Shown: positions 29,188 to 53,313 of the stretch, in pieces
How positions within the stretch are numbered: the stretch's first letter is position 1
Layout of the letters: the number at the start of each line of letters is the position of its first letter
The notes under the pieces: generated by a model
The model's input: only the letters and a program-made list of their open reading frames with translations
Told to the model about the DNA's origin: nothing
Database searches by the model: none
DNA from: an uncultured archaeon
GTDB lineage: Archaea > Thermoplasmatota > Penumbrarchaeia > JASLWR01
Assembly: GCA_964430885.1 (NCBI GenBank)
Contig: CAYSHM010000010.1
Span: 36,601 to 100,600 of the forward strand
Length of the DNA stretch: 64,000 nt
Direction: 5' to 3'
Made by a program: the position numbers and the translations under genes

Positions 29188-29188
29188 T

Positions 29189-37300: not shown

Positions 37301-38359
37301 TTGATTACACGAGAAATCTCCCTTTCAGCAAGCATTGGAACCCATTCGGTTCTTGGATTGAAAAAGATAGAATCTCACAGTGAACCTACCACAGGATATC
37401 TTATGCTGGGTAAGAACTGTATGAACAATTGCGCTTTCTGCACCAAATCCGCTCATTCCCAAAATGATAAACTATCCCGAATAACATGGCCCGAAATCAG
37501 TCTTGGAGAACTGTTGAGAGCAAAGGAATCCGTTTTAGATTTCCAAAGGATATGCATACAATGTACTCAGTATCACCATCTCTTGTCAGACCTCAATGAA
37601 TTATTGGATTTCATAAGAGAGGAAATTAAATTTTACGGACCAATATCTGCATCAATCAATCCTTTGACCAAAGATGAAATGACGGAACTAAGAAAAAAAG
37701 GATTATCGGACATATGCTTTTCCCTTGATGCCGCGACTGCAAACCTTTTTAAAACCGTTAAGGGTATGAATGTTAGGGTAATGAAGGACAGGAAAAATAA
37801 CGGTTTCTCATTTGTTTTTGAATCCCTCAAAGATGCATTGGAAATATTCGGAACCGGACATGTTGCGACCCATCTTATTGTAGGCCTGGGTGAGTCTGAT
37901 TCCGATATTGCATGGTTCTTGAAAAAAATGCTTGAAACCGGCATCAGAATAGCCCTCTTCTCATTCACGCCAATGCGGGGAACAGATATGGCGGATCATT
38001 TCCAGCCATCCCTTAAAAGATACAGAACCATTCAGTCCTTACTATACCTTATGAAAAATAGATATATTTCCTGCCAGGAATTATTATTTAACCACAGAGG
38101 ATCGATCTATGCCATAAATTCCCACTATGGAAAACAGGAGACTCAGTATAAATCTAGCAATAATATTGAAGAAACGTTGAATCTATTAACAGCTGAGGTG
38201 TTCAGGACATCAGGTTGTTCCGGATGCAATCGTCCATTCTACAATGAAATGCCGGGGGGACCCATGTATAACTTTCCCCGGGAACCAAAGCAAAATGAAT
38301 TCGAGGAAGCATTACAGCAGGTAAAGGATTACCTTCAGGAACAGAGTTGCTCTGAATAA
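37301..38359 (+). CDS. Radical SAM protein, LipS2-type lipoyl synthase subunit-like
   Basis: CMNNCAFC; LSRITWP; HLIVGLGE; ALFSFTP; TSGCSGCNRP, close to the LipS2 TxGCPxC(N/D)RP motif. Confidence 0.72.
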   Translation: MITREISLSASIGTHSVLGLKKIESHSEPTTGYLMLGKNCMNNCAFCTKSAHSQNDKLSRITWPEISLGELLRAKESVLDFQRICIQCTQYHHLLSDLNELLDFIREEIKFYGPISASINPLTKDEMTELRKKGLSDICFSLDAATANLFKTVKGMNVRVMKDRKNNGFSFVFESLKDALEIFGTGHVATHLIVGLGESDSDIAWFLKKMLETGIRIALFSFTPMRGTDMADHFQPSLKRYRTIQSLLYLMKNRYISCQELLFNHRGSIYAINSHYGKQETQYKSSNNIEETLNLLTAEVFRTSGCSGCNRPFYNEMPGGPMYNFPREPKQNEFEEALQQVKDYLQEQSCSE

Positions 38360-38552
38360 TGTATATCTAACGGTAATTGGAATACTCAATTGAATTTATC
38401 AATTATCGAAACCGTTTCTGGATGGAATTAAACTTAAACAATACCCAAAATATTTATGTAACTTGATTCAGATTAAGTTGAGCACTTTGAACCATGAAAA
38501 AAACTGAATTTTATACCATTTATTAAGCTAGGATTTTGTAAAGGCGATAATA

Positions 38553-41500
38553 ATGTTAAAGCGCGATAATTATAGAAGACCCTCGACCTTTCTAAGCATA
38601 TTAATAGTATGTTTGATGGTTTTGAGCGGGTTGGGTTTAGTCCAACTGATATCATTGAGTGACGCGAATGTTGGGCATGTAGAAGCAGATAACGCTAGGG
38701 ATCATTCAGGCACAAGGGATGAACCGGACCTTGTCAGTTACTGGAATTTCGATGAGAATTCTGGAACAAACGCCGCTGACTCCGTTGGCAGCAGTGACGG
38801 AACACTAGATCTGGGTGTTGAGGGAAACACAGATCCGAACCTTGCCTGGGAGCAGGGCATCATTGGGAACGGATTGGCAATGGATGGGCAGGATGATATT
38901 CTCAACTGCGGGAATCATCCTTCCCTTGACATAACGCAGGAGATCACAATAATTGCGTGGGTAAACTGCAGATTGGAATACCTAAGGCCGACATTGATAG
39001 CTAAACATACCGATGCAGATCCGGGATATCTTCTTAGGTGGGACAGGGACAAAGGATTCCTCTTCGCAGTCGAATCCAGTCCCATTGCCAGCAGAATGAC
39101 CAACCTAAATACTGTCAAAGATAAATGGTATCAGGTAGCAGCAACCTTCGGAGATGATCTTCATATATATATTAATGGCATTCTGGCAGATGGTACTGCT
39201 ACTGGTCAGATACCTGCCCAGATAGGAACATCCGCTGCGGACCTGATAATGGGTGGAAGGACTGATGATGATTGGAATTTCAACGGGACACTGGACGAGG
39301 TGAAAATATACAGCCGCTGTCTTACCTCCACCGAGATCAAGGATAAATTCGCAGAAGTAGCATTGAGAGGCGGATGGACCTTTGATGATGGATCTGGTGA
39401 GACCCTGAGCGATTATTCACCGAACAGCAATGACGGATCCATCTCCGACGATGATGCGGATAACGGGGACGGAGATACTCCTCCACTATGGGCGGATTCA
39501 ATCATTGACGGTGGACTTATATTTGATGGGGTGGATGATTATGTTGAGGTTTCCCAGGATCCTTCCTTTGATTTTGAATCCAATGAGGAATTCACCATTT
39601 CCGCCTGGGTTAAGAGCGATAATGAGGATGGGGTCATCATCAGCAACAGGGATGCAACCAGCTATTTCTCTTTAATATTTGAATATGGTTATCTGGCAGC
39701 AAGGTACAAAAGCCTTTCAGGTTCAACATTGACCGCAATTACAAACAAGAAGTACAATAATGACATGTGGCATTATATGGCAGCCGTACTGGAAAGAGGG
39801 AACGGAGGACAGATCAGGTTATATGTTGACGGCGATCTGAAGGCAAGCGACAGCAAGGGTGGATTTGACGGAATCGAGAGCCCCAAGAACATCAATATTG
39901 GAAGGGACGCACACAGTCTGGACAATCATTTCAGAGGAACCTTGGATGAGATACACGTATGGAACTCGGCATATACCGAAGGACAGATCGCAAATGTATA
40001 CAATGAGGTTCTAGATCAGGCACAGGTGCCTCCCTCTCTATCAACACCTATCGACGATATAATCACATTCAAGGAGGACAAAGTTGGAAAAGATCTGATT
40101 AATGTAACTCATCATTTCGATGATCTTCTAGATGATTCCATGGACCTTAACTATTCCATTGAGAGGGTCTCCGGCGATCATATAATTGCCACTTTTACCA
40201 ACTTCACCTTATCATTCCAGAGCGATGAGATAAACTATACTGGTGAGGCGGTTTTCAAGATCGTTGCTGAGAACTCAAAACAGCTTACCACTTATTCCAA
40301 CGAATTTACAGTGCAGATCGAACCTGTGAATGATCTGCCCATCTGGACCTCTGCACCGCCTTCAATTTCATTTAAGGAGGACCACAATCATACTACGTCC
40401 TATAAATTGATTGATTATGTTACTGACGCTGAGGATGACGAGCTGATCTTCGACCTTGATTTCAATGATGACATGTTCAATATCAGTCTAAATGAGGACA
40501 CCAATATTTACCTAGAAGCCATCGATTCGGATGTATTCGGTGAATTCAAGTTAAATGTTACTGTGATAGAGAATGCCTCCCAGGATGCAGGCGGCAGAAA
40601 GGAGATTTCCTTCGCTATCGACCCAGAAAATGATGTCCCAAGGGCGACACTAACATCACCTAGTGCCGGGCAGCTGTCCATGATAAGGAATGTGACCCTT
40701 GAATGGGACGTTTCAGATGTGGATGATGATGAAGGGAACATCACATTTGATCTTTATTTGGGAAAAAACCCGGACCCGCCCATATTCAAGACCGGACTTG
40801 ATACAAAAACCTTTACGGCTACTGGGCTTGATGACCTTTCCACCTATTACTGGAAGGTGATCCCAAATGATGACGAGGACGAGGGAATATGCGAAACAGG
40901 AATAAGGAATTTTACAGTTGACTCACTTGCAGACCTACCAAAAGTACGATTGCTTACACCGGTAAATGCCTCCAACATAATGGAAGAAGAAATCCTACTG
41001 ACATGGGAAACCGTTCTTGATCCAAGAGCAGGGACTTTGAACTTCAGGGTTCTAGTTGGTAATGGTTACGGAAATCTGACCGGTAAGGCGAATACTGTTG
41101 ATAACGAATATCTATTAACCGATCTGATGCCTGAAACAAGGTATTATTGGACTGTTATCCCCTATTATCCTGCTACTGGAGGTAACATTGAGGGTATATG
41201 TATAAGCGGCAGTTGGTATTTCGAGGTCGGAGACATCCCCAAATACATACTGAACACTGAACAGGAAGAAGTAAAGCTCAGTATCATCCAGGGTGAAGAG
41301 AGAAGTTTCAACCTCACTCTGATTAACGATGGAAACAGGGACATGGACATAAGTTTAGTCCAATTAGGTGATTTGCCCGCAACAGTTTCCTTTGCCGACT
41401 ATGTACAGATCTCATCCGGTGACCAGGCAAATATAGTTATAACGGTCAATATCAATGATAATGCAACACTTGCATCATATGACTTTAGGATATTGCTGAA

Positions 41501-42047
41501 TAACGGTGTAAAGAACAAGACGGTATCATTTACTATTGTAGTGAAGAACAAGAACACCGGAAACAACAACAACGGTCAGGATACAAAGGATGAGGAAGGT
41601 GGATTGCCTGGTTGGATCCTTTATGTCATAATCGGAATCATCGCTGTGGGTCTTATTATAATCATTATAATCGTTTTAGTAGTTAAGAGGAATAAGAAGA
41701 AACAGGAGGAGTTGGAGGCACAGAAAGCAAAGGAGGAAGAGGAGAGGCGGAAGAAAGAGGAGGAGGAACAAGCGAAATTCCTCGCAGAGCAGGACGCACT
41801 TTCCAAGGATCTTGACCGGTGGAAGCGAAAGGATGTGGATTACGAGAAATTCAAAGATGTTGACACCGAGGGATGGGAAAAGGAATATCTGGAACAGATC
41901 CGGAAGGAGATGAAAGAACAGGGGGAGGTTCCCTCGGATCAAATGGTTGGGGCTGGGGAGTTTAAACTTGGAGGGGAAGCACTTCCACAATTTGGATCTT
42001 CATTGAAGATCGAATCCTTTGACGGCGAAGAAAAGAAGGAAAAATAA
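38553..42047 (+). CDS. Large surface protein: 2x LamG-like jellyroll, cadherin/Ig-like and FN3 domains, TM, charged cytoplasmic tail
   Basis: LVSYWNFDE..G, FNGTLDEVKIY and FRGTLDEIHVW (LamG); PVNDLP/PENDVP (cadherin-like); TYYWKVIP and RYYWTVIP (FN3); TM followed by an E/K-rich coiled segment. Confidence 0.85.
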   Translation: MLKRDNYRRPSTFLSILIVCLMVLSGLGLVQLISLSDANVGHVEADNARDHSGTRDEPDLVSYWNFDENSGTNAADSVGSSDGTLDLGVEGNTDPNLAWEQGIIGNGLAMDGQDDILNCGNHPSLDITQEITIIAWVNCRLEYLRPTLIAKHTDADPGYLLRWDRDKGFLFAVESSPIASRMTNLNTVKDKWYQVAATFGDDLHIYINGILADGTATGQIPAQIGTSAADLIMGGRTDDDWNFNGTLDEVKIYSRCLTSTEIKDKFAEVALRGGWTFDDGSGETLSDYSPNSNDGSISDDDADNGDGDTPPLWADSIIDGGLIFDGVDDYVEVSQDPSFDFESNEEFTISAWVKSDNEDGVIISNRDATSYFSLIFEYGYLAARYKSLSGSTLTAITNKKYNNDMWHYMAAVLERGNGGQIRLYVDGDLKASDSKGGFDGIESPKNINIGRDAHSLDNHFRGTLDEIHVWNSAYTEGQIANVYNEVLDQAQVPPSLSTPIDDIITFKEDKVGKDLINVTHHFDDLLDDSMDLNYSIERVSGDHIIATFTNFTLSFQSDEINYTGEAVFKIVAENSKQLTTYSNEFTVQIEPVNDLPIWTSAPPSISFKEDHNHTTSYKLIDYVTDAEDDELIFDLDFNDDMFNISLNEDTNIYLEAIDSDVFGEFKLNVTVIENASQDAGGRKEISFAIDPENDVPRATLTSPSAGQLSMIRNVTLEWDVSDVDDDEGNITFDLYLGKNPDPPIFKTGLDTKTFTATGLDDLSTYYWKVIPNDDEDEGICETGIRNFTVDSLADLPKVRLLTPVNASNIMEEEILLTWETVLDPRAGTLNFRVLVGNGYGNLTGKANTVDNEYLLTDLMPETRYYWTVIPYYPATGGNIEGICISGSWYFEVGDIPKYILNTEQEEVKLSIIQGEERSFNLTLINDGNRDMDISLVQLGDLPATVSFADYVQISSGDQANIVITVNINDNATLASYDFRILLNNGVKNKTVSFTIVVKNKNTGNNNNGQDTKDEEGGLPGWILYVIIGIIAVGLIIIIIIVLVVKRNKKKQEELEAQKAKEEEERRKKEEEEQAKFLAEQDALSKDLDRWKRKDVDYEKFKDVDTEGWEKEYLEQIRKEMKEQGEVPSDQMVGAGEFKLGGEALPQFGSSLKIESFDGEEKKEK

Positions 42048-42066
42048 CTACAGTTAGTAGAATTGA

Positions 42067-42117
42067 TGACAATGGAGCAGAAAGAAGAAGTAAGAAGTAG
42101 GATTTGCTCCATTGTCA
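42067..42117. terminator. Hairpin with 13-bp perfect stem between convergent genes
   Basis: TGACAATGGAGCA (42067-42079) / TGCTCCATTGTCA (42105-42117), followed by a T run on the + strand. Confidence 0.6.
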
Positions 42118-42143
42118 GATTTTTTAATCATTAATATTATTTC

Positions 42144-42440
42144 TTACAAAGCTCTGGTCCTGAGGTAAATTTTCAGGGCTTCTCGGATATAGTCTCCAAC
42201 ACTTCTTGAGGATTTAGATACTAGTTTGTTCAATCGGATAACGGTCTGTTCGGGCAGTACAACATGTACTTCTTCAGCTCCTTCCATCTCCTTATCCAGA
42301 ACTTCTAAAGCTTTTCCAAATTTTGCAATTCTGAAATCTTTCATATCGAGCATTTCATTGATCTTATCACTTAGTGCGATCTGACTATACCATCTGTCAT
42401 CAACCTTAATGGTTCTCTCATCATAATTTACCTTTGACAT
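42144..42440 (-). CDS. Small protein with C-terminal ribbon-helix-helix (CopG-like) domain
   Basis: VHVVLPEQTVIRLNKLV....RSVGDYIREALKIYL pattern; GGAGGAGTGA RBS. Confidence 0.65.
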   Translation of the reverse strand: MSKVNYDERTIKVDDRWYSQIALSDKINEMLDMKDFRIAKFGKALEVLDKEMEGAEEVHVVLPEQTVIRLNKLVSKSSRSVGDYIREALKIYLRTRAL

Positions 42441-42629
42441 ACTTCACTCCTCCGTGGTTGTAATCCCAAAATTGAAAATATCTTTGAGAAAAATCAATAG
42501 TAGCTTCGTTCACTACTTCATTTATACTATATATTTCTTTTTAAATTAATTTTCTGTGTACTACCATAAAATTAAAAGATACCTGAATTATTAAAAAGGA
42601 CTTATTACCGTGAAGGTTTAAATCAGTTT

Positions 42630-44477
42630 GTGACAAATATGCTTGATATTATGGTCGATAAAATGACTCCAGAACCAATGATAAACCTAAAAACCGGAGA
42701 TAAAATTCTGATTCATCTTCTAGAGCATCAACCAGGTCACATCGATCAGTTCAATGCTCCCATGTCTATTGCACAGGAGGGTATCGCAAAGGCCATTGGA
42801 ATTAATAGAACACACATTCCCAGATCCCTTAAGAAACTAGTCAAAAAAGGGATGATTACAGAAAAAAGGAGACATGTTCCGGGAGCTCGAAGAAAACGTA
42901 AGGTCTACTATTTGACCACTCAAGGTTTGGAGAGGGGTGAAATAACCAGAGAAAAACTGCTGAAACGTACTATTCTGGTGAAGACCGAAAATAAATATAT
43001 TGAACGAAATCTCCAGGATATATCCCGGGAGCTGCCTGATGATTATACCACACTGGACCTATGGAACAGTCTTACCTTGGTAGGCATTGTCGATACCAGC
43101 AGTCTAACCAAAGCGAGAGACCTTTCGAGGAAATATCTCATTTACCCAGATAATATACCATGGAACAAGCATTTCTACGGACGCAAGAAGGAACTTATTA
43201 CAATTAAACAGCAGTGGAAGGATGGAAGAATCCGGTTATTTGTGATAACCGGGATTGCTGGTATAGGGAAAACATCTCTGGTCATTGAAGCCATGAAAAA
43301 ACTCAAAGATTCCACCTATATATTCTACCACAGATTCAAAGAATTCGATACACTAAGGAAAATGGGTAAGAAATTTTCCAGTTTTCTTTCAGCAATAGGA
43401 TACCCAGGTCTAGATGATTATCTTGATTCCACCGTTGCCCTTGATATCAGTACTGCCTTGGAAATCGTACTGAACGATTTCAGAAATCTGGAAACCCTTG
43501 TAGTATTGGACGATTTTCATAAATGCTCAACAAGGATCAGCTCCTTTGTGAAGGAAGCGTTCAGAAAAAAGGATTACCTGGGTAATGTCAGGTTCATGAT
43601 TATTTCGAGGGAGAAACCCCTGTTATACGATCAGAAATCCGTGGTTGTTGATAAATCGGTATTCGAAATGCGCTTGGAAGGTCTTTCACCGTCCAGTTCG
43701 GAGAAGATGCTGAAAGAAAACCTGGAGGCTGAGCTGCCGGACCTGAAAACCATTCATGCCATGACCGAAGGGCACCCTCTGCTTTTGGAACTATTATCTC
43801 TGGGAGATGAAAAGGACCCCTTGAAAGGCGGAAAGATGAATATTACTAGGTATCTGGAGGACGAAGTACTCTCAGGATTAAAGGATGAAAGCAACCAGCT
43901 TCTTAGAAGAGTATCAGTGTTCAGAAGGCCCTTCAAATCAACGGCTATTAGAACTGACGACGGACCAATCGAGGGTACACTCCAATCCCTGACATATAAG
44001 AATATACTCTTGGAGGACGAAGGTTGTTTTGAAATGCATGATCTGATAAGGGACCATATCTTGGAAAGAACCCCTGAAGAGGAAAAATCATTCAATCATT
44101 TAATTGCTGCCAACTATTACAAGGATCTAAACGACTCGGAAGCATGGCTGGAGGCGACCTATCATTTCATCCAGGCTGAAGAATATGAAAGGGCCTTTGA
44201 AATGGTGAAAGAGAAAGGCGGATCCATTATGGAGAAAGAGCATTTTGAGGAGTTTCGCGAGGTTCTGGAGATTATTGATGAAAAGATTGAATCAAGAGAA
44301 GTTAAGGCACAGGTACTTCATTTCAAAGGCACAATCTATATCTACTGGCTGCTTTTCTCCCAAGCCGTGGAATGCCTGGAGGAAGCAATAGGATTGTGGG
44401 ATAATCTAGGCGAAAAGGAAAAAATGGCAGAGGCGAAGAAACTGCTTAAAAGAGCCCAGAACCATTATCTCTATTGA
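42630..44477 (+). CDS. wHTH - STAND/NB-ARC-like NTPase - TPR protein (MalT-like regulator architecture)
   Basis: QEGIAKAIGINRTHIPRSLKKL..VYYLT..G (wHTH); FYGRKKEL, ITGIAGIGKT (Walker A), VVLDDFH (Walker B), EGHPLLLEL (GxP), MHDLIR (MHD); C-terminal TPR helices. Start could be a later ATG. Confidence 0.82.
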   Translation: MTNMLDIMVDKMTPEPMINLKTGDKILIHLLEHQPGHIDQFNAPMSIAQEGIAKAIGINRTHIPRSLKKLVKKGMITEKRRHVPGARRKRKVYYLTTQGLERGEITREKLLKRTILVKTENKYIERNLQDISRELPDDYTTLDLWNSLTLVGIVDTSSLTKARDLSRKYLIYPDNIPWNKHFYGRKKELITIKQQWKDGRIRLFVITGIAGIGKTSLVIEAMKKLKDSTYIFYHRFKEFDTLRKMGKKFSSFLSAIGYPGLDDYLDSTVALDISTALEIVLNDFRNLETLVVLDDFHKCSTRISSFVKEAFRKKDYLGNVRFMIISREKPLLYDQKSVVVDKSVFEMRLEGLSPSSSEKMLKENLEAELPDLKTIHAMTEGHPLLLELLSLGDEKDPLKGGKMNITRYLEDEVLSGLKDESNQLLRRVSVFRRPFKSTAIRTDDGPIEGTLQSLTYKNILLEDEGCFEMHDLIRDHILERTPEEEKSFNHLIAANYYKDLNDSEAWLEATYHFIQAEEYERAFEMVKEKGGSIMEKEHFEEFREVLEIIDEKIESREVKAQVLHFKGTIYIYWLLFSQAVECLEEAIGLWDNLGEKEKMAEAKKLLKRAQNHYLY

Positions 44478-44644
44478 AAGGCAATAGTTCAACCCGCCAA
44501 TGACCAAATAATCCATTATCCTTGGATCATATAATAATAATAATTGCGATACAAAGATAGTAAGTATTATAACCATTAATGTTATTAAATAGAAAAATCT
44601 GGTTTAAATTTCCGAAATAACCAATAATAAAGGTGTTTGATAAT

Positions 44645-45364
44645 ATGGATCCTATTCGAAAAGCAACGGCCTTTGCTGATGATGTAGAGGAAGCACTGGG
44701 AAAGAACCATATCTGCACAGCGGTTTATGGTCCTCCAGTTGTGGGTAATTATAAGGAAGGAAAATCTAAGATACCTGTGTTCATAGCAGTGAACAATTTC
44801 GATTCGGACACGGTTCAATCCCTGACCAACGTATTCCAGAGATGGAAATCTGAGGGGATCGATATTCCTATGGTAGTTGAACTTACGGACCTGGAAGGAA
44901 TGTCCGATAGTGTACCCGATGAACTCGTTGAGGTAACAATGAACTACAAGATAGTGAGAGGAAATGACATTCTCCGCGTTCTTCCTGAAATGGATTATGA
45001 ACATGCTAGGGCCCAGGCTGAACTAGCAGTTAGAAGATATCTGCTCCTTCTTAGAAGCCAACTTTTAGAATCTTTGGGGCATCCTGAGAAACTGGAAGCC
45101 TATCTCAAATCAATGGCCTTTTACTGCCAAATTAGCATGCAGCTTTATTACAGGGTCCTTGATCAGAAGTTCAATTCTCCTGCAGAGCTCGAAGAGGAGT
45201 TCTATAAGGACTTCCCCGAGGCCAAGGAGGACTTTGAGATACTCTCAAACTACTGTTATGGAGATGGAACAAATCTCTCAAAGGAACCCCTGGAATTAAT
45301 CGCATCTACACTTAATACGTTCATGCAACCCATTTTGAAGAAGATAGACGAACTGGGTGACTGA
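44645..45364 (+). CDS. Nucleotidyltransferase-fold protein with degenerate active site
   Basis: LGKNHICTAVYGPPVVGNY..GKSKIPVFIAV aligns by eye with the hYGS....Dh.p..SDhDhhhV pattern; later IVRGNDIL; AGGTG RBS. Confidence 0.55.
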   Translation: MDPIRKATAFADDVEEALGKNHICTAVYGPPVVGNYKEGKSKIPVFIAVNNFDSDTVQSLTNVFQRWKSEGIDIPMVVELTDLEGMSDSVPDELVEVTMNYKIVRGNDILRVLPEMDYEHARAQAELAVRRYLLLLRSQLLESLGHPEKLEAYLKSMAFYCQISMQLYYRVLDQKFNSPAELEEEFYKDFPEAKEDFEILSNYCYGDGTNLSKEPLELIASTLNTFMQPILKKIDELGD

Positions 45365-45384
45365 ACGAGAGGTATTGATCTGAT

Positions 45385-45413
45385 AAAGGCCTGAAAATCT
45401 TTCGGGCCTTTTA
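45385..45413. terminator. Hairpin plus T-tract between convergent genes
   Basis: AAAGGCCTGAAA-ATC-TTTCGGGCCTTT(T) with one G-U pair. Confidence 0.6.
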
Positions 45414-45660
45414 ATTTTAATTAATTGAAATATATTATTGAATTATACCATCTTTTTATTGCGCTGTAAACACTTCCTTTTTTTTAGAAATAATTTATAG
45501 GAGATTGAGCTACATTTCGATCTCCGGTTGATCTTTTGAATAAGAAAAATCTATTTGAAATACATCAATATTAGGATGAAGTATAGACAAATTCCATATT
45601 GTTAATTTTGAAATGGATCATAATTATTATTAGATAAATTCTATGAAAGCGTATTCATAA

Positions 45661-48435
45661 TTATCCATATAAGTTCTGATAGTCCCTCTGCTGCTGTGTC
45701 TGAGCCTGCTGCTGACCATAGGGCTGCGGGTTTTGAGCTGGCTGCTGATAACCTGGCTGCTGATATGCTGGCTGCTGTTGCTGACCCCCCCCTGCCGGAG
45801 AGCCTGCTGGAATCCAGCCCTCTTGGCCGTAGGCCGGAGCCTGTTGTGGTTGTTGGGGCTGCTGCGGTTGACCACCGGGTTGTGAATCGCCACCTGCCCC
45901 TCCGCTTCCACCGCCCACTGTAAATCCTGATGGTGAACCACCGGGTTTAGCTATAGTGTATTCCTTATAGCCCTCTCCCTTGTTCTTTCTGCGTTTCAGG
46001 GCAAAGATAATAACAATTATGATGATAAATAAAATTGCGATTCCGAAAACAATAAGGATCAAAGTCACAGTGCTCATTCCTTTATCCTCTTTTTCACCCC
46101 CTCCGTTATCGTCATCATCATCATCGTCAACAATATTATACCAATCTTTGGGATACTTTGAAGGTTTATCTCCGGCAGCATCCCTTGAAAGATAAGTTAC
46201 CAGCTGGGCATCTTCTGTGGCAGTGACCTTTCTTCTGGATACCACGAAGAAATCAGCGAACTCATCATCCTCCACATCGATCATTTCCTCAAGGGGCTTC
46301 AACTCGTATGCCGGGAAATGTATCTCAAGACCGTCTCCGTCCTCAACGGTGGTATAGTTCAATGATAAGCTGAACTCGACATCCTCATCAAAAGTACATT
46401 TATACGTCAACTTACCTTGATTATAGGTGATATTCAGGAAATAATCACTGAATACCGCCTTATCAAAATTACTTTCAGTTATTTTCGGTTCGCTGAAAGG
46501 CTGCTCCAGGAGATAAAAAGAGAAATATGTATCGTCAAGATCAACGGGGTCTATAGTGACAAGCCCCATCCTGAACATGTTGTCCTTATCTACGGTGCAG
46601 TAGATGCGCTGGATGTTCATATCGGGTACTGGCTGAACCGAATAGATTGGTTGCTTGATTCCCACGGTCCTCATCTGCCCTACATCCACTCCATCCTGAT
46701 TATTGTATCCATCCTTGCTATCATCTTCAAGTATTCCATCCTCCTCATCCTCCAATCCGATGATGTAAGGTGTGGGGTCAAATCCTTCGAGTATCGGAAC
46801 CTTCAGCTGAGTATAGTTATAGGAGCCGTAACCGCTCTCGGGATTATCCCTTACTGTAAGGGTTATAGTGTATTCTCCCGCCTCATCATAATTGATCTTC
46901 CAGTTCTTGTTGTTGATATCGGTATCATTGGTAGCATTTCCATCCATGTTCCTATCCTGATCATCATAGAAATCCCAACCGTAAGTCAAATGGTCGGTCT
47001 CCCCCGCATCTATCTTTCCGTTGCCGTTTGTGTCATCATCAGGATCATAGGTGCCCTCTGCGCTGAAGGTTATATCCTCATCCGTAAAGCCGATCTCCTT
47101 ATCATCATCATAGGCGAAACTTGCCTTCACAACGGGGATGTAATTGATATATATCGGGAACGGTTCTGTTGATACAGCCCCAAACTGATCCTCGACTGTC
47201 AAGGTACCTGTATATTCTCCGCCATGCTTGAATGTATATTTACCTCCGTTTCCGGAAATGTCCTTGTCATTGGTGAAATCCCCGTCCTTATTCTTGTCAA
47301 CGGTGGAATCGATATCCCAGTAATACATCAGGTTATCCTCTTCGCTCCCGGTTATTACCTCATCGCCATTCTCGTCATCATCGGGATCGTAGGATTCCAT
47401 GGACCTGAATGGCACCTTAACACTGCCACCCAGTTCTAAATTTGCAGCCACTACGTCAGGGGCCACTGCAACAGGCTCCTCGTTCTCGACAAACCTTATA
47501 GAATAGGGGCCGCTACCGATTCGGGGTCTTACAACAATATAATACCTTCCGGTATACTGAGGCTCGAAAGTAGCCGTCTCAAGACCCTTTTCACCCTGGG
47601 AAGTGGTGATCCTGGTATCGGAATTGATAAGTCCGGGATTGTTGAGTTGATCTCGGTACTGGTAAATAGACAACTCGAAATCTACGCTTTCACTGAACTC
47701 CAGGAAAAAAACGTATGTTCGATCCATTGTAAGGTCAGCATAGAATGCATCAATTGCATCCGGAGGTACAAAACTGCTCTGAGATGAGATATCCTGCGAC
47801 AAGGGGACAACCGGTTCCACCTGTGCGCTCATGGCCCAATCGGTACCCAGGATGGAATCACCAGGCAGTTCACCGACATCGTCGCCTTCAGGTACTTCCT
47901 GAGCCCAGTCCTGTGAATCGCCATCCCAGAAATAGGAATTTGATTCGTCCTCCTTCCCTTCCACTGCTCTCAGCTGCAGGGGGAAACGGGTCATGGGTTT
48001 GAATTGGATGTTGTAATCAGTATCAACAATAAGATAATCATCCTCGCCAAAGAGAAACTGCTGGGTCTTGTCAGTACCACCATTGAAATTCGCTATTTGG
48101 TGTTCGGTCATTGCAGCTTGATCCTCTCCCAACAGACCTCTTTGAGCAACAATCTTGGCCCTGTACTGTTCATCGGAAACATTGAATGTCAGTTTTACAC
48201 CGGTTACTATCTTAGGACTCTGATAGGGATTCTCAATGTTTATACCTGCTCTTCTGAAATGCTCCTGATCCACGTAAGCAAGATCCACATGGCCCACGTA
48301 ATCAGCGTGAGGATCCATATCCGGATCGTCATCAGGGATAGTTGCCAATGAAGGCGTTATCATTACAAACAATGTGAAAAAAGATAGGATACCTATTATC
48401 AATCGGTATCTTGACATACTTCTGTTTCCTTTCAT
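45661..48435 (-). CDS. Acidic surface protein with PKD-like domains carrying Dx[DN]xDG inserts, TM anchor and Gln/Pro/Gly-rich cytoplasmic tail
   Basis: Signal peptide; PPC-like YTGRYYIVV; two SYDPDDD.NG...YxWD...TLTV repeats; TM LILIVFGIAILFIIIIVIIFAL followed by KRRK; QQPQQP tail. Confidence 0.8.
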   Translation of the reverse strand: MKGNRSMSRYRLIIGILSFFTLFVMITPSLATIPDDDPDMDPHADYVGHVDLAYVDQEHFRRAGINIENPYQSPKIVTGVKLTFNVSDEQYRAKIVAQRGLLGEDQAAMTEHQIANFNGGTDKTQQFLFGEDDYLIVDTDYNIQFKPMTRFPLQLRAVEGKEDESNSYFWDGDSQDWAQEVPEGDDVGELPGDSILGTDWAMSAQVEPVVPLSQDISSQSSFVPPDAIDAFYADLTMDRTYVFFLEFSESVDFELSIYQYRDQLNNPGLINSDTRITTSQGEKGLETATFEPQYTGRYYIVVRPRIGSGPYSIRFVENEEPVAVAPDVVAANLELGGSVKVPFRSMESYDPDDDENGDEVITGSEEDNLMYYWDIDSTVDKNKDGDFTNDKDISGNGGKYTFKHGGEYTGTLTVEDQFGAVSTEPFPIYINYIPVVKASFAYDDDKEIGFTDEDITFSAEGTYDPDDDTNGNGKIDAGETDHLTYGWDFYDDQDRNMDGNATNDTDINNKNWKINYDEAGEYTITLTVRDNPESGYGSYNYTQLKVPILEGFDPTPYIIGLEDEEDGILEDDSKDGYNNQDGVDVGQMRTVGIKQPIYSVQPVPDMNIQRIYCTVDKDNMFRMGLVTIDPVDLDDTYFSFYLLEQPFSEPKITESNFDKAVFSDYFLNITYNQGKLTYKCTFDEDVEFSLSLNYTTVEDGDGLEIHFPAYELKPLEEMIDVEDDEFADFFVVSRRKVTATEDAQLVTYLSRDAAGDKPSKYPKDWYNIVDDDDDDDNGGGEKEDKGMSTVTLILIVFGIAILFIIIIVIIFALKRRKNKGEGYKEYTIAKPGGSPSGFTVGGGSGGAGGDSQPGGQPQQPQQPQQAPAYGQEGWIPAGSPAGGGQQQQPAYQQPGYQQPAQNPQPYGQQQAQTQQQRDYQNLYG

Positions 48436-48816: not shown

Positions 48817-49659
48817 TCAAACATATGAAAAAAGAAGAAAAGCGGTATGACCAAGCATTTGGGTGGCAGGCCTTATCCGATCTCGGCCAGTATTGATATC
48901 CCTTAGGAGCAGTTCTCTACACCTTATATTACAGAAATCATTGTTCTTAAGCTCGGCTATTGTCCTTTCAAGTTGATTGTATGTTGGAATATAGAAAGCT
49001 ATACCCGAATCTGTTTTCAGGGCGTTCTTGAGAAGAGTGACTATGTTCCATGGATCGGGCATATCAACAATACAATGATGGTGTTCATCAATTCTCCTAT
49101 CTTTCAGCCATTTTTTATCAGCAAGCAATTCCTTAGCGTCTCCGATCACCATATCCCATGAGTTATCCAATTCGACGCTTGCAATATTCTTTGAAGCAAT
49201 ATCTCCGAAATCCCTGCGTTTCTCAATAGAGGTGACCTTTCCATCACCGGTGAACCAAAGCAGTACTGAAGTCATAAATCCCGATCCCACACCTACCTCC
49301 AGCACCTTGCTCCCCTCTCCAATACCCAGTTCACCTACCATGTGGACCGAATCCTTCAATGATATAACCTGGGCGCATCGCTTGTAGCTCGCAAGTATCA
49401 GAGGCAGGGTTTTCTTCCGGATCACATATTTGTGGGGGCCAACTCTTATGAGATCCCCGAATTGTTTGCCGATTATTCTTTTAGGTGAGAATACTCCCAG
49501 GCCCTTAACTGCTCTCCTCTCACCGCTGAGAGTTACAGAAATTGGTTTGGTATCATCGGAACCTGAAGGGGCTAGTATTACATTTTCGCCTGAACCGATA
49601 ATCCCCTTTGAACCATCGCGGGATCCAATAACTTCCAAATCCTGCTCTACCTTATCCAA
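48817..49659 (-). CDS. trmI: tRNA (adenine-N1)-methyltransferase, TrmI/Gcd14 family
   Basis: KRCAQVISLKD, VLEVGVGSG.MT, EKRRDF, VDMPDPW, YIPTYNQ, IRP..MLGHTAFL. Confidence 0.88.
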   Translation of the reverse strand: MDKVEQDLEVIGSRDGSKGIIGSGENVILAPSGSDDTKPISVTLSGERRAVKGLGVFSPKRIIGKQFGDLIRVGPHKYVIRKKTLPLILASYKRCAQVISLKDSVHMVGELGIGEGSKVLEVGVGSGFMTSVLLWFTGDGKVTSIEKRRDFGDIASKNIASVELDNSWDMVIGDAKELLADKKWLKDRRIDEHHHCIVDMPDPWNIVTLLKNALKTDSGIAFYIPTYNQLERTIAELKNNDFCNIRCRELLLRDINTGRDRIRPATQMLGHTAFLLFSYV

Positions 49660-49689: not shown

Positions 49690-51189
49690 TTATTCAGACT
49701 TCTCCATTTCGTCGAATTTCTTGTTCAATCTCCGGTTGAGCAATATGGATATTATCAAGAAAAGGCTCCATTCCAGAATAATCAAGAGCACAGCAATGGA
49801 TCCTTTATGCCACCATTCATGACTGCTCTCTGACCAAGTTTGATATATATAGAAACCAAATAAGGACAAAAGCTGAATGGGGAACACATACTTAACCACT
49901 ATCTCCCACCATTTCCCGATCTTAATATCGTTCCATTTGCTGCTGATGAAGTCCTTCCTGAACCGGGATATTCCATATTTCCATACGGAGAATGCCACAA
50001 AAGCCCCGCTAACCACGAGACCGATGCCCCAAACAAGGTCCTGATTGTCCAAAAAAGCGGTAACCGAGGCCCCGTTGATCCTCAGGATGATAACAGCTGA
50101 CGGTATACCTAGAATAAATGTTACAAGGGAGACGACTCCTATGGATTTCTTTCGACTCCATCCGAAATCCATAAGATTACGTGTGGATATTTCCAACCCT
50201 GAAATCAGCGAGGTCAAGGCTGCAAAGGACATGGCCAGAAAGAACAAGGGAGCAATAAGCCATCCGAGTGGCATGCTGGTAAAGAGTTTGGTCAGATATA
50301 TAAATGTGAGAGCAGTGCCCCCAGCATCTATGTACTGTGTAGCCTGTTCGTAAGTACCAGCTGAAGCAAACACCGTACATATTACAGCTATTCCTGCCAC
50401 AAGAGCTACCGATGTATCCCCAAAACCTGTTAGGAAGCTGTTCAGGGCAATATCCTCTTTTTTCTTCATATAGACCGCATATGTTATTCCCATACCCATG
50501 CCTGCTGAACATGACCAGGCACTTTGGGCCAAAGCTCTGATCCAGGTTTCACCTCTAGTCAGTGCACTCCAATCTGCCCAGAACATATATCTTAAACCCC
50601 TGATAGAGCCCTTGAATGTCAAGGACCATATCATTGCCCCAACTAGAAGTACTATCAATGTGGGTATCATTATCTTGCTGGCCTTTTCTATACCCTTGGC
50701 AACGCCGAATCTTACAATAATGAAACCCATCAAAAGGGAAATAACCTGAAAGAACACCACCAGATACCATGTTGAGATAAAATTATCCCATAATGCAAAG
50801 GTATCCACTTCACTGGTGATACCGCCTACTGCCGATATGGAAAAATATCTTATAGTCCAGCCCATCACCACTCCGTAATAGAAATTTATGGCTGCGGACA
50901 CCAGCATCATCCATATCCCCATCCATAGATATTTGGGGCCTAGTATCTTCCTGAAAGCACCGATGGTACCCTTTCTCGTTTTCTTACCTATGGCAAATTC
51001 TGCCAGAAGCAGAGGTATGGACCAGGTGAAAAGGAACAAAATATAAACAATAATGAAAGCTGACCCGCCGTTGGAGGCAACCTCTTTGGGAAAACGCCAT
51101 ATATTGCCTGTGCCGACCGCAGCACCCAGGGCTGCAAGCACCAGACCCCACCTTGAAGTGAATTCTTCCTTACCCTTTGCTGCGGTCAT
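49690..51189 (-). CDS. Sodium-dependent transporter, NSS/SNF family (amino acid:Na+ symporter)
   Basis: FTSRWGLVLAALGAAVGTGNIWRFP...NGGSAF; PLLLAEFAIG; FAALTSLISGLE; about 12 TMs. Confidence 0.93.
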   Translation of the reverse strand: MTAAKGKEEFTSRWGLVLAALGAAVGTGNIWRFPKEVASNGGSAFIIVYILFLFTWSIPLLLAEFAIGKKTRKGTIGAFRKILGPKYLWMGIWMMLVSAAINFYYGVVMGWTIRYFSISAVGGITSEVDTFALWDNFISTWYLVVFFQVISLLMGFIIVRFGVAKGIEKASKIMIPTLIVLLVGAMIWSLTFKGSIRGLRYMFWADWSALTRGETWIRALAQSAWSCSAGMGMGITYAVYMKKKEDIALNSFLTGFGDTSVALVAGIAVICTVFASAGTYEQATQYIDAGGTALTFIYLTKLFTSMPLGWLIAPLFFLAMSFAALTSLISGLEISTRNLMDFGWSRKKSIGVVSLVTFILGIPSAVIILRINGASVTAFLDNQDLVWGIGLVVSGAFVAFSVWKYGISRFRKDFISSKWNDIKIGKWWEIVVKYVFPIQLLSLFGFYIYQTWSESSHEWWHKGSIAVLLIILEWSLFLIISILLNRRLNKKFDEMEKSE

Positions 51190-51252
51190 ATATTTTACTC
51201 CTGGATCAATGATTTTAATGTGATTTGAAATGAATTTTCATATCTATAGGTC

Positions 51253-53133
51253 CTATTCGGATGATGACTTGAGTTTCTCGGCTTTCATGGCTTTATTGAG
51301 AAGCCCTACGAATCCACCCCATACAAGGATCAGGATCAAGCCCATCATGATAAACATCATTACATTTTCCATGGAAGTAAGACCAATTTCGGGACTTACA
51401 TGGGTGATATAGGGATCATAACTGCCGTAATCCGGAGCTGATAGGGTGATACCGCTGATATCCTTGGCTGTAATATAGTAATATATATCAGTTTGGGGTT
51501 CAAGAAATTCAATGCTGTAATAATAGTTGCCTGATGAATTGTCCAAGAGCATTGGGGCTGTACGGTAGGCCTCACCGTCACTGCTGTAATGGAAAGTCAA
51601 GGTCTCTGGAATCATTTTTTCGATATCCTCTACTTCAGCCGTTATTCTGAATCCCTCATTGGCCCTTATTACCGCTGGTCTTTCCACCACATTAATATCT
51701 GCGATGGAATTCTCAATAGGCTGGTAGTAATTTCTGGCCACCTCGATCTTTTCGGCCTGGTCACTAAGATAAAGGTTAGCCTTCAAGGCCTTTTTGCAGA
51801 TAGGTGCAATATGCTTTGTAGCAGGATGAAATCCACCGTCTTGGCCCTCGAGTTCTATGGTAAAGGCGATCACATTCCCGCAGGCATACAGCCAATCTTC
51901 ACTGTCTCCGGAAGTGGGGTATAGATAAGAAGCCTGTTCCGCTTCGTAGTCCATGATATCTCCCATCTTTCCCCCAACCTCTTGGAATAACAATGAGTGG
52001 GGGGCTTCATTCCTGGTCCATCCCCAGGGCCATAATATCAGACTTGCCACACTGTGATAGGAAATGGAGGCTGCAAATGGTATGTTGCCCGTATCCCCTT
52101 GATCATCATAGGTTTTTACCAACCGTCCCAATGCCTGTGTTTCCGGTTCGGTGAAACCTCCGTCCCGGTCCTCGTCCACCTTTCCATCCCCGTCGTTGTC
52201 CTCGGAGTCTACTGGATCCTCATTGATCCTTGGTATGATCCCTCCAGGTCCGAAATCACCGTCCTGATTATGGGTATCGCTGGGACCTCTGTACATATCC
52301 GACCTGGGATTTGCTGAATCCTGGGTCATTACTACTCCGTCCATTCTGACAAGGGTTTCCCTGTTGTACCACCACAGATACGGATAATTACGGTTGAGAT
52401 CCACTCCGTCCCAGCTGGGGTCGAACTGATTATTCTGATTATTATCCCGAACATTCTTTCTCCAGCCACCTCCGCTGCCGGGTTCGGATATTGTATGATC
52501 GTACATGACCCCGTCTGGATTCAGCATTGGGATTATCCAGATCTCCCTATTATCCAAAAGATAGCTGATACGTCCCTCCGATGGATCCTCATCCGTCAGA
52601 CCGTCTCCGTCCTCATCAAGACCATTCATTAGATCTTCGTTGATCAGCCCGTCCCCATCGTTGTCCATATTCTCAAGGCCATAGTTCATAGCTAAATAAT
52701 AAATCGTATAGATGCAGACCTCGTAGCTCATCCATTCCCTGGCATGGTGCGCACCGAATAGCAGCACATTTTCTTTATCGGGATCATCAAAATAATCCTG
52801 TTCGTTCCTTACCCCTGAACTAACCTTCACTCCTAGAACAGATCGTCCCTCATAAGTATGCCGCAGGTCGCTTTTCTCCGTAAGATCATATATCTTAACC
52901 AGGTCAGGATACATATTCTGCAGTTTATTCAGCTCCATGACCATGGTATCATAGGTATGATATTCCTGAAAGTAGCCGTCGATCCCGCTGAAGAGAACAT
53001 TATCTTCGGATGGATCAACCTCTTGGGCTGCAATATCCGAATAAGATCCCGGTACCTTCAAGGTCATCATTGGTAATAATGGATTACAAAGGAGTGTAAT
53101 AACAGCAACATATATCATTCTGCTAAAGCCCAT
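51253..53133 (-). CDS. Secreted M14 zinc carboxypeptidase (CPT-like) with C-terminal MetS-like membrane segment
   Basis: YHTYD.M; GAHHAREW (HxxE); PMLNPDG; WRKN; GVDLNRNY; FTEPETQA; ISYHS; LYPTSG..DW; FTIELE; Ig-like domain; C-terminal TM ...LILILVWGGFVGLLNKAMKAE. Start trimmed to ATG 53133. Confidence 0.88.
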   Translation of the reverse strand: MGFSRMIYVAVITLLCNPLLPMMTLKVPGSYSDIAAQEVDPSEDNVLFSGIDGYFQEYHTYDTMVMELNKLQNMYPDLVKIYDLTEKSDLRHTYEGRSVLGVKVSSGVRNEQDYFDDPDKENVLLFGAHHAREWMSYEVCIYTIYYLAMNYGLENMDNDGDGLINEDLMNGLDEDGDGLTDEDPSEGRISYLLDNREIWIIPMLNPDGVMYDHTISEPGSGGGWRKNVRDNNQNNQFDPSWDGVDLNRNYPYLWWYNRETLVRMDGVVMTQDSANPRSDMYRGPSDTHNQDGDFGPGGIIPRINEDPVDSEDNDGDGKVDEDRDGGFTEPETQALGRLVKTYDDQGDTGNIPFAASISYHSVASLILWPWGWTRNEAPHSLLFQEVGGKMGDIMDYEAEQASYLYPTSGDSEDWLYACGNVIAFTIELEGQDGGFHPATKHIAPICKKALKANLYLSDQAEKIEVARNYYQPIENSIADINVVERPAVIRANEGFRITAEVEDIEKMIPETLTFHYSSDGEAYRTAPMLLDNSSGNYYYSIEFLEPQTDIYYYITAKDISGITLSAPDYGSYDPYITHVSPEIGLTSMENVMMFIMMGLILILVWGGFVGLLNKAMKAEKLKSSSE

Positions 53134-53313
53134 ACGAATTTCAACAATGGTATAGCCAATAATAAATATTTTGGCCAAATATCCATTTTGGACATCAATT
53201 ACAAAGCATCCAAATGCCTGAAAACAATAAAAACAAAACATCTAGAAACCTTTATATAATTCTGGAGGCATAAAATCAACTAGCACGTTTTTGCGTGCAG
53301 GAGGACTGAAGAT

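Follow-up and report, generated by a model that had tools for sequence, protein, structure and literature searches.

A MetS-like tail on an archaeal M14 carboxypeptidase encoded next to an NSS transporter: a probable cleave-and-import module

Introduction

The small subunits of the MetS family, known from MetPS of Corynebacterium glutamicum, accompany transporters of the NSS family. In its canonical form, MetS is a separate peptide, 30-60 residues long, that has a single transmembrane (TM) helix with a VWGG(L/F) core and is charged at its C-terminal end. It is encoded next to the NSS gene, often overlapping with it, and in the three bacterial examples compared here (Priestia, Acinetobacter and Bacillus sp., 3/3) the NSS gene comes first and the MetS gene second. 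The evidence for what MetS does for its transporter reportedly comes from a single genetic study in Corynebacterium, and MetP is reported to need MetS. The archaeal locus described here has the same type of helix, core and charged end, also next to an NSS gene, but the module forms the C-terminus of a 626-residue, predicted extracellular peptidase and precedes the NSS gene.

Peptidases paired with a transporter of the SLC6/NSS type are found in the mammalian brush border, where ACE2 and aminopeptidase N are partners of B0AT1 (SLC6A19). According to excerpts of PMC7164635, ACE2 is a type-I membrane metallo-carboxypeptidase, and its C-terminal TM helix and membrane-proximal domain bind B0AT1. 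The association with a peptidase raises the apparent affinity of B0AT1, possibly via the local substrate concentration (abstract of PMC3408045). The likeness of these pairs to the archaeal locus is functional. ACE2, whose peptidase domain is of the M2 family and is joined to a collectrin-like domain, has no sequence kinship to M14 or MetS, and the genes of ACE2 and B0AT1 are unlinked, whereas the M14 and NSS genes studied here are adjacent.

Among solved proteins, the catalytic domain with all its catalytic motifs is shared with carboxypeptidase T of Thermoactinomyces vulgaris, an M14 enzyme of 323-326 residues which is soluble and secreted and has neither the Asp-rich inserts nor the beta-sandwich nor the membrane helix of the archaeal protein. 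The NSS protein of the window (the whole stretch of 64,000 nucleotides that was analysed) has the fold and the TM1 and TM6 motifs in common with MhsT of Bacillus halodurans and with LeuT. It has one C-terminal TM segment beyond the MhsT alignment, and the solved entries that it matched list the transporter chain alone.

Marine microbial ecologists have long asked how planktonic heterotrophs keep the products of extracellular hydrolysis from diffusing off. In the surface ocean, Marine Group II archaea rank with the most abundant archaea, and they are thought to use proteins and peptides. M14A-type carboxypeptidases are described as being among their commonest extracellular peptidases (excerpts of PMC6864105) and among their highly transcribed peptidases (excerpts of PMC9723583).

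Results

Gene layout

The features of the locus are listed in Table 1. An earlier note on this DNA had placed the peptidase gene 63 nt upstream of a co-directional NSS gene, and this was borne out, with the M14 stop codon at 51253..51255 and the NSS start codon ATG at 51187..51189. The GGAG in the spacer is 8 nt ahead of this ATG. The gap of 30 nt on the far side of the NSS gene, also described in the note, was confirmed and is followed by a gene for a GCD14-like tRNA methyltransferase, and the WGG motif of the tail is encoded as quoted there. The likely start of the M14 gene coincides with a signal-peptide-like N-terminus. A free-standing MetS-like ORF was found neither in the window nor in 80 related loci (the best 80 of 516).

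Table 1. Positions of the genes, domains and motifs at the locus (numbering of the window)
Feature	Positions	Strand	Remarks
M14 zinc carboxypeptidase gene	51253..53133	minus	626 aa from the likely start; open frame reaches 53241
Signal-peptide-like hydrophobic segment	53044..53133	minus	about residues 1-30; AF2 helix 2-23, hydropathy scan
Catalytic domain with two Asp-rich inserts	51724..52989	minus	residues 49-470; AF2 pLDDT mostly >90
C-terminal beta-sandwich domain	51394..51699	minus	residues 479-580; strands in AF2 model
MetS-like module	51256..51375	minus	residues 587-626, one long helix: TM segment and basic, predicted cytoplasmic end KAMKAEKLK
VWGGF motif	51310..51324	minus	residues 604-608; read from the sequence
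Spacer between M14 and NSS genes	51190..51252	minus	63 nt; GGAG at 51198..51201; no long T run
NSS (SLC6/LeuT-fold) sodium-dependent transporter gene	49690..51189	minus	499 aa, about 12 TM; PF00209 E 2.5e-64
GCD14-like tRNA methyltransferase gene	48817..49659		beyond the NSS gene, 30-nt gap between

The carboxypeptidase and the transporter

The minus-strand ORF 51253..53241 was matched by Peptidase_M14 (PF00246) with an E value of 1.1e-48 and 166.8 bits against a cut-off of 21.6. No other domain was found in the M14 protein by the Pfam scan, and the collectrin-like domain and the M2 peptidase domain of the ACE2/collectrin-type SLC6 partners were absent by the same scan. Carboxypeptidase T was the best solved relative both by sequence (E 8e-31) and by fold (TM-score 0.84-0.86 of the target, Foldseek E 5.7e-28), and was aligned in three blocks split by the Asp-rich inserts. 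The residues H130, E133, R225, N247, R248, H360, Y416 and E427 were invariant across 51 M14 homologues. Their zinc and catalytic roles were assigned from the known M14 motifs: the HxxE...H zinc site, the Arg and Asn-Arg for the substrate carboxylate, and the catalytic Glu are all present. In the AF2 model, the N-terminal hydrophobic helix (2-23) is followed by a disordered linker (22-47), and only about 6 residues separate the beta-sandwich from the terminal helix. Judged by its sequence, the enzyme is a secreted zinc exopeptidase of the carboxypeptidase T type with intact catalytic residues, its export and activity being predicted.

The product of the second gene belongs to the SNF family (PF00209, 218.3 bits against a cut-off of 27) and has the TM1 and TM6 motifs of these transporters. 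The TM1 motif is GTGNIWRFP, in which a Gly occupies the site where amine transporters carry Asp. MhsT (4us3) was the best solved relative (E 2.4e-59), and the alignment to LeuT covered the protein through TM11, with the extra C-terminal TM segment at 461-486. In a small, quickly made tree with long branches, the M14-linked NSS proteins formed a clade of their own, apart from three MetS-linked bacterial NSS proteins.

The C-terminal tail resembles the MetS family

The tail of the peptidase is a single TM helix (587 to about 625) with the (V/I)WGG(L/F) core inside it. In each library searched, MetS was the sole family matched by the window tail, with scores below the cut-offs: E 0.032 and 14.0 bits for NF033493 (MetS_like_NSS, curated cut-off 25) and E 0.15 and 12.2 bits for PF16951 (MaAIMP_sms, cut-off 26.2). 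When 66 orthologous tails were analysed, NF033493 was matched by 61 at E<=1 (best 2.6e-6), PF16951 by 38 and NF033494 by 34, and no family other than MetS was matched by more than 2 of the 66. The curated cut-off of 25 bits was reached by 2 of 34 individually scanned tails (L018 with 25.2 and L040 with 25.1). The tails of L001, which has YTG, and of L023 and L046, which have WGS, did not match the MetS models; all three loci retain the NSS gene. The alignment columns of the core (n=66) held V in 61, W in 65, G in 65, G in 62 and L in 64 of the tails. Since W, both G and the following L/F are conserved to at least 94%, though the tails are only 10-33% identical to the window tail, the pattern seen in the alignment exceeds chance.

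The search was also made in the opposite direction. When 1.84 billion representative proteins were searched with a profile built from the tails, 121 matches came up at E<=0.001, and 49 of these were stand-alone proteins of 29-56 residues. NF033493 matched 47 of the 49 at E<=0.01, with 34 reaching the curated cut-off. By hhalign, the tails aligned with the 49 stand-alone proteins with a probability of 98.5% (E 2.9e-15) and with a Priestia protein annotated as small subunit with 91.9% (E 7e-7). The suspected MetS profile match is therefore present and reciprocal (61/66 tails in one direction, 47/49 stand-alone proteins in the other). The tail had also been said to differ from the other surface anchors of the window, and indeed the MetS models matched none of the C-terminal TM anchors of 6 other window surface proteins; they also matched none of 15 plain-anchored M14 homologues of full length (0/15). 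We conclude at the level of sequence families that the tail is probably a MetS member and not a generic anchor. Since its C-terminal end is charged and the extracellular enzyme is on its N-terminal side, the tail is presumably oriented N-out/C-in by the positive-inside rule.

Other searches for relatives were less productive. A word-indexed search with the tail alignment (26-97 residues) returned only 39 short M14 tail fragments from Marine Group II and was uninformative on stand-alone relatives. A tblastn match of MetS in Haloarcula (E 5) was rejected as a chance match: it is inside a hypothetical protein of 180 residues, and there is no NSS gene close to it. Among the ESM Atlas look-alikes of the 55-residue tail (best score 0.81), the second-ranked cluster carried MaAIMP_sms on 15% of its members, which we treat as a lead only. 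At L076, the ORF 9596..10375, which comes after a second NSS gene, encodes a YGG helix with no MetS match.

The tailed peptidase is linked to the NSS gene

Linkage was analysed in the best 80 of 516 confirmed loci, taken from one genome per species (GTDB), and 71 of the 80 had a complete M14 3' end. Wherever an intact M14 gene with a WG(G/S) tail was found in this sample, an NSS gene followed directly downstream on the same strand (65/65). Hence the arrangement recurs in other genomes, and no WGG-tailed orthologue without a linked NSS gene came up (0/65 among the best 80 of 516). The NSS gene was also present at L001 with its variant tail and at L069, where M14 is frameshifted and the tail is in another frame. 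The M14 and NSS genes overlapped in 28 of 67 pairs (by 4 nt in 20, 1 nt in 7 and 8 nt in 1) and were 0-31 nt apart in 38, which puts 66 of the 67 spacers between -8 and +31 nt; the 63-nt spacer of the window is longer than 66 of the 67. Of the window genes between 42 and 60 kb, M14 and NSS alone recur in the related loci. The tail thus strictly co-occurs with NSS and is tightly gene-coupled to it among the best 80 of 516 loci, and the pair of M14-MetS fusion and NSS is widespread in Marine Group II/III archaea.

A predicted complex of tail and transporter

The earlier note had suggested that the tail docks on the permease. A model of the tail with the NSS protein, built on our own alignments, gave a confident interface, with an ipSAE of 0.88 in 3/3 runs and of 0.00 in the best of 3 controls. 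Of 157 solved complexes, 116 come up to this mark, as do 2 of 215 mismatched pairs. At least 85% of the contacts were common to the runs, with a partner pLDDT of at least 74. The tail was positioned at TM7 and TM2 of the transporter, and the VWGGF residues made the lowest-error contacts, with the NSS residues 256, 259, 260 and 263. No MetS relative was found by sequence in the PDB. The model suggests that the tail may physically dock on the NSS protein in the cell.

Discussion

Taken together, we consider it probable that the two genes form a cleave-and-import module, in which an M14 peptidase with a MetS tail is docked on an NSS transporter and its products are taken up. The M14 gene would give a secreted exopeptidase with the last 40 residues or so acting as a fused MetS, N-out/C-in like the free one, and the second, co-directional gene would give an NSS amino-acid:Na+ symporter. 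The MetS helix would pack on TM7 and TM2 of the transporter, on the side that faces the lipid, and the short linker of about 6 residues would keep the beta-sandwich and the catalytic domain just above its outer face. C-terminal amino acids cut from peptides would then be released beside the permease and be taken up instead of diffusing away. The products of the enzyme would have to be substrates of the transporter, and proximity may raise the capture of amino acids. Points that weigh against this reading are the sub-threshold score of the window tail, the tail variants that miss the MetS models, the gene order opposite to that of canonical MetS, the separate clade of the M14-linked NSS proteins, the long spacer of the window and the small number (two) of informative negative loci.

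The tail might also be a true subunit that supports the stability or activity of the NSS protein, with the peptidase working on its own, either on bulk peptides or on a substrate that has no relation to the NSS cargo. The fusion would then mainly set stoichiometry and location. This would agree with the fact that canonical MetS functions without an ectodomain, and the present results give no tie between the product range of the enzyme and the substrate range of the transporter. However, all tail-profile matches of more than 300 residues with one matched stretch were M14 proteins, as found by the Pfam scan or by an M14-type C-terminal sequence, and the fused M14 enzymes span clades with only about 30% identity in the catalytic domain. 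The shortness of the linker to the ectodomain also argues against independent action, as does the mammalian precedent that coupling of a peptidase to B0AT1 can raise the apparent affinity (abstract of PMC3408045). We regard such a subunit without channelling as unlikely.

Alternatively, the helix could be a mere anchor, with WGG serving self-association or membrane depth, and the adjacency of the NSS gene could reflect co-regulation without a complex. Profile matches of a single TM segment are short, and that of the window tail is sub-threshold. The residues of the NSS protein at the predicted interface are no more conserved than the protein average (0.77 against a mean of 0.78, reached by 6074 of 10000 permutations). 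The divergence of tail and NSS protein is correlated (Pearson 0.87; Mantel test, 0 of 999 permutations reach this), which indicates co-inheritance and not contact, and co-inheritance alone would explain it. Over 66 pairs, the mutual information of tail columns with NSS columns was dominated by shared ancestry and was uninformative. On the other side, the tail profile picked curated members of the MetS family from among 1.84 billion proteins, whereas the MetS models matched 0/21 plain anchors, and the plain-anchored M14 paralogues at L005 and L063, the only two informative negative loci, had no NSS gene in the 3.7 and 1.5 kb downstream. The conserved face of the helix is the predicted interface, with its residues more conserved than the rest of the tail (0.64 versus 0.45, reached by 334 of 10000 permutations), and the ipSAE of the complex stands against 0.00 in the controls. 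An operon without a complex is quite unlikely in our view.

It is hardly probable at all that the tail is an archaeosortase- or rhombosortase-type signal for sorting or processing, which would be removed or modified once the protein is exported: the hydrophobic C-terminal segment, the Gly-Gly and the charged end resemble one superficially and one tail had a weak PTPA-CTERM match (E 0.062), but each CTERM model was matched by at most 1 of 66 tails, and such signals mark many proteins per genome, whereas the tail was on 0/6 other anchored window surface proteins and on no fusion partner except M14.

The docked cleave-and-import module, the reading that we favour, resembles ACE2-B0AT1 probably by convergence and not by descent. 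It is quite possible, though we put it forward tentatively, that Marine Group II/III and related Thermoplasmatota have an obligate peptidase-transporter holoenzyme as an independent counterpart of ACE2-B0AT1, with MetS as an evolvable docking handle for ectoenzymes. Within the reach of our literature search, with subscription journals and supplements outside it, we found no published description of a peptidase-MetS fusion, in agreement with the earlier note, no work on the PF16951/MaAIMP/MetS-family small subunits of NSS transporters, and none linking a carboxypeptidase of Marine Group II or Thermoplasmatota with a symporter.

If true, the hard-wired link of M14 to uptake would be a concrete and testable mechanism for "selfish" amino-acid capture, with each cleaved amino acid caught before it diffuses into sea water. 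For annotation, a MetS-tailed M14 gene followed by an NSS gene would be read as one unit. Complexes of a peptidase with an SLC6 transporter, ACE2-B0AT1 among them, would gain a simple model in a prokaryote, and the MetS small subunits, whose role is obscure, would have docking as a second function.

The gene pair and the M14 enzyme

The coordinates of the M14 carboxypeptidase and NSS transporter genes, and the tail sequence quoted for the former in the earlier note, all agreed with the sequence. No long T run was found in the spacer between the two genes. The DNA comes from a Thermoplasmatota archaeon: the closest relatives of the peptidase were Thermoplasmatota according to their source annotations, and the related loci came from MAGs of Marine Group II/III and other Thermoplasmata.

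Coordinates of the gene pair and of the M14 protein segments
Feature	Position	Strand	Remarks
M14 peptidase ORF	51253..53241	minus	Peptidase_M14 PF00246, E 1.1e-48
M14 likely start	Met at 53133	minus	opens signal-peptide-like segment; 626 aa
M14 stop codon	51253..51255	minus	
M14-NSS spacer	51190..51252	minus	63 nt; GGAG 8 nt ahead of NSS ATG
SNF/NSS transporter gene	49690..51189	minus	499 aa; PF00209, E 2.5e-64
GCD14-like tRNA methyltransferase gene	begins 30 nt downstream of NSS gene		
N-terminal hydrophobic helix	M14 residues 2-23		AF2 model
Disordered stretch	M14 residues 22-47		AF2 model
Catalytic domain	M14 residues 49-470		AF2 model
Asp-rich inserts	52580..52670 and 52160..52370 (approx.)		M14 residues 156-186 and 255-325
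Beta-sandwich	M14 residues 479-580		AF2 model
Linker, beta-sandwich to terminal helix	about 6 residues		AF2 model
One long terminal helix	M14 residues 587-625		AF2 model

Carboxypeptidase T was the best solved relative of the M14 protein both by sequence (E 8e-31) and by fold (Foldseek E 5.7e-28, TM 0.84-0.86 of target). The residues expected to bind zinc or take part in catalysis (H130, E133, R225, N247, R248, H360, Y416 and E427) were invariant in 51 homologues at 31-59% identity, so the window M14 is expected to work as an exopeptidase. Mean pLDDT of the AF2 model was 85.9, and pTM was 0.82. The carboxypeptidase T-like fold is broken by two family-conserved Asp-rich inserts with DxDxDG-like repeats, which matched an acidic double-disulfide repeat model weakly (E 0.047) and may be calcium sites. 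Two homologues, P0225 (499 aa) and P0237 (513 aa), are too short for both inserts and keep the MetS-like tail.

Also encoded in the window are a type IV pilin of the archaeal kind and numerous surface hydrolases with PKD domains. Six large surface proteins (3481..14039 and 35363..48435) have plain C-terminal TM anchors; three combine glycoside-hydrolase-like domains (GHL10 twice, GH18 once) with PKD, and three carry PKD/Big_5 or laminin-G domains. The encoded cell surface is dense in tethered hydrolases, with a transporter-type tail only on the M14 enzyme. An M29 aminopeptidase gene lies at 31697..32851, and a molybdopterin dehydrogenase cluster of the CO or xanthine dehydrogenase type at 27698..31594, its three genes encoding FAD-binding, 2Fe-2S and MoCo subunits.

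Relation of the tail to the MetS family

The window tail (55-59 aa) gave a single match in each library, to NF033493 MetS_like_NSS (E 0.032-0.17, 11.6-14 bits) and to PF16951 MaAIMP_sms (E 0.15-0.17), both far under the curated cut-offs. Taken alone, these matches are weak; five further results make the MetS likeness solid. First, a (W/Y/F)GG motif was found within the last 60 residues in 76 of the best 120 M14 homologues, and in 66 tails at 10-33% identity to the window tail the residues V, W, G, G and L/F were 92-98% conserved, a conservation that goes far past the needs of an anchor. Second, when the tails were scanned singly, 61 of the 66 matched NF033493 at E<=1 (best 2.6e-6), 34 matched NF033494 and 38 PF16951, and no other family was matched by more than 2 of the 66. 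The 25-bit cut-off of NF033493 was reached by 2 of 34 individually inspected tails. Third, none of the 6 plain anchors of other window surface proteins matched the MetS models at E<=1, and 15 plain-anchored M14 homologues of full length gave no such match either.

Fourth, a profile search with the 66 tails, which used no word index and covered 1.84 billion representative proteins, returned 121 matches at a library-wide E<=0.001. Sorted by eye, these were M14 proteins or fragments, one false positive (P0239, a repeat protein with 13 matched stretches) and 49 small proteins of 29-56 aa that stand alone. NF033493 was matched by 47 of the 49 at E<=0.01, with 34 reaching the cut-off (best 48.6 bits); of the other two, one matched NF033494 only and one had no match. 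Fifth, hhalign aligned the tails to an annotated NSS small subunit of Priestia megaterium over 30 of 38 residues (91.9%, E 7e-7). The alignment to the 49 stand-alone proteins (98.5%, E 2.9e-15) is partly circular, as the set was picked by the tail profile. The conservation, the family matches, the clean controls, the reverse search and hhalign lead us to place the tail in the MetS family, as a member or a derivative; the window copy is a divergent member. The profile match proposed in the earlier note is borne out, by the tails scanned against NF033493 and by the MetS proteins that the reverse search returned.

Variant tails at three loci (L001, L023 and L046) matched no MetS model, and all three loci keep the NSS gene. 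A whole subclade has Y(S/T)G in place of WGG (L001 at 6408-6551, P0031, P0033-P0038, P0040, P0041, P0043, P0049-P0052 and P0058); its MetS match is lost in a scan that covered L001, the sole locus seen for this subclade, where the NSS gene lies 24 nt downstream. Beyond the WGG helix, the tail is acidic and D/E-rich over 20-30 aa in Marine Group II (tails of L011-L080), and basic and AEKRK-like in the window clade (51256..51300) and Marine Group III. Among stand-alone MetS proteins, the ends are acidic in Acinetobacter and basic in Priestia. P0186 is a predicted protein of 129 aa in which an ABC-ATPase-like N-terminal part is followed by an M14 tail of the Marine Group III type; its gene call is probably chimeric or frameshifted.

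Linkage of the tail to the NSS gene

Related loci were collected with the alignment of 51 homologues as query, taking one genome per species, and the best 80 of 516 confirmed loci were analysed. In 65 of these 80 a WG(G/S) tail was followed directly, on the same strand, by an NSS gene, and in 9 the M14 gene ran off the locus end. WGG-tailed M14 genes without a linked NSS gene would count against the tail as a transporter subunit; among the best 80 of 516 loci there were none (0 of 65). Two loci had an NSS gene and no WG(G/S) tail by pattern: L001 has the variant YTG for WGG, and in L069 the M14 gene is frameshifted, with the WGG tail in another frame immediately 5' of the NSS gene. Neither tail nor NSS gene was found in four. 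Two of them (L010 and L059) are broken or less than 300 nt from a contig end and uninformative on linkage, which leaves L005 and L063 as the only two informative negatives among the best 80 of 516; these have plain anchors, and no NSS gene was present in the whole locus, including the 3.7 and 1.5 kb, respectively, that follow the M14 gene.

For the spacing, the NSS start was set at whichever start codon lay closest to the aligned N-terminus. Of 67 pairs, 28 overlapped, by 4 nt (20 pairs), 1 nt (7) or 8 nt (1), and in 38 the NSS start lay 0-31 nt past the M14 stop, an arrangement typical of subunits translated together. Of the ORFs between 42 and 60 kb of the window, only M14 (80) and NSS (67) recurred in the best 80 loci; the pair therefore moves as a unit across clades with differing flanks. 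No separate MetS-like ORF was found in the window or in any of the best 80 loci. The order of M14 tail, then NSS is the reverse of that in the bacterial examples, where NSS preceded MetS in 3 of 3.

Predicted docking of the tail on the transporter

The complex of the NSS protein with the 55-aa tail was modelled from alignments of 66 sequences for each partner, with 64 rows used for the tail. The interface anticipated in the earlier note was predicted with a score of 0.88 in 3 of 3 runs, whereas the best of three controls scored 0.00. Among solved complexes 116 of 157 score this high, as do 2 of 215 mismatched pairs; with custom alignments these calibration counts are only rough. The runs shared at least 85% of contacts, and the partner pLDDT was at least 74. 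It is unlikely that the result reflects memory of a solved MetS complex, because no MetS relative was found by sequence in the PDB (best E 0.04 and 0.13). SLC6 complexes with other single-TM partners do exist.

In the model, the tail helix runs antiparallel to TM7 of the NSS, the TM labels being approximate as they come from alignment to LeuT. The main docking face comprises L249, N250, F252, L253, F256, G257, T259, S260 and L263 of TM7, and further contacts were predicted with residues 43-50 in outer TM2, residues 12-17 at the N-terminal end of TM1 and the loop 199-205. The lowest-error pairs joined tail V33, W34, G36 and F37 (M14 604-608) to NSS 256, 259, 260 and 263. Within tail residues 20-48, conservation was 0.64 at the interface and 0.45 elsewhere, a difference reached by 334 of 10000 permutations. 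On the NSS side it was 0.77 at the interface and 0.78 over the whole protein, a comparison that has no lipid-facing baseline and gives the docking no support.

Features of the NSS transporter

The best solved relative of the window NSS was MhsT (E 2.4e-59). The protein aligned with LeuT through TM11 and had one more hydrophobic segment at 461-486, which predicts about 12 TM segments. The TM1 motif has Gly where amine transporters have Asp, a position which we take to mark the substrate class; this Gly points to an amino acid as substrate. Residues 258 and 262 (about 50404..50418) are D and A, where the family consensus is N and S. They align with the LeuT ion-site residues N286 and E290, and the two differences could affect ion coupling.

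A quick tree was built from 33 NSS sequences, after four truncated or over-long rows had been omitted and Marine Group II rows thinned to one in three; the 27 M14-linked sequences formed one clade (SH-aLRT 99). In this small tree the clade did not fall among the three MetS-linked bacterial NSS. A second NSS gene on the L076 contig (8193..9659) grouped with the latter on long branches; its 3' end is overlapped by a 259-aa ORF (9596..10375) with YGG in the first helix, which matched no MetS model. In L044 (6992-9580) the NSS frame is open for 862 aa, about 290 aa beyond its relatives; an assembly error, a read-through or a true fusion could explain the excess. On Haloferax volcanii pHV4 (L082:2942-3265) a hypothetical gene begins one base after the NSS gene; its 107-aa product matched no MetS model and may be another kind of accessory protein.

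Relation to known systems and proposed working

[quoted passage not shown] By function, the M14-NSS pair is closest to ACE2-B0AT1, in which a single-pass carboxypeptidase binds an SLC6 transporter through its neck domain and TM helix (PMC7164635); association with the peptidase raises the apparent affinity of the transporter (PMC3408045). The likeness would be convergent, since the ACE2-B0AT1 proteins are unrelated to the proteins described here. Among the extracellular peptidases of Marine Group II, M14A or 'carboxypeptidase A' has been reported as common and highly transcribed, and the passages on it in these reports make no mention of a transporter link or a special tail (PMC6864105, PMC9723583). 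In the main texts of openly accessible articles, no published peptidase-MetS fusion was found. What is new here is the fusion of a transporter small subunit to an ectoenzyme.

Taken together, our results show that the exopeptidase is intact and ends in a MetS-family helix, and that its gene is strictly linked to that of an NSS transporter, on which the helix is confidently modelled. The fusion noticed beside the NSS gene in the earlier note is real, and its reading as a docking module is supported. Against this reading stand the sub-threshold score of the window tail, the three variant tails, the reversed gene order, the place of the M14-linked NSS clade apart from the MetS-linked bacterial NSS and the small number of informative negative loci. 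On export, the N-terminal domains of the M14 protein would come to lie outside the cell, and the helix would span the membrane N-out/C-in, the orientation expected of free MetS given the charged C-terminal end. The short linker would hold the enzyme above the transporter, and freed C-terminal amino acids would be imported with sodium ahead of diffusion loss. We consider it likely that M14 and NSS form a functional unit through the tail helix; a true hand-over of substrate from one to the other is possible and is put forward tentatively. The M14-MetS fusion is widespread in abundant marine archaea and is directly testable.
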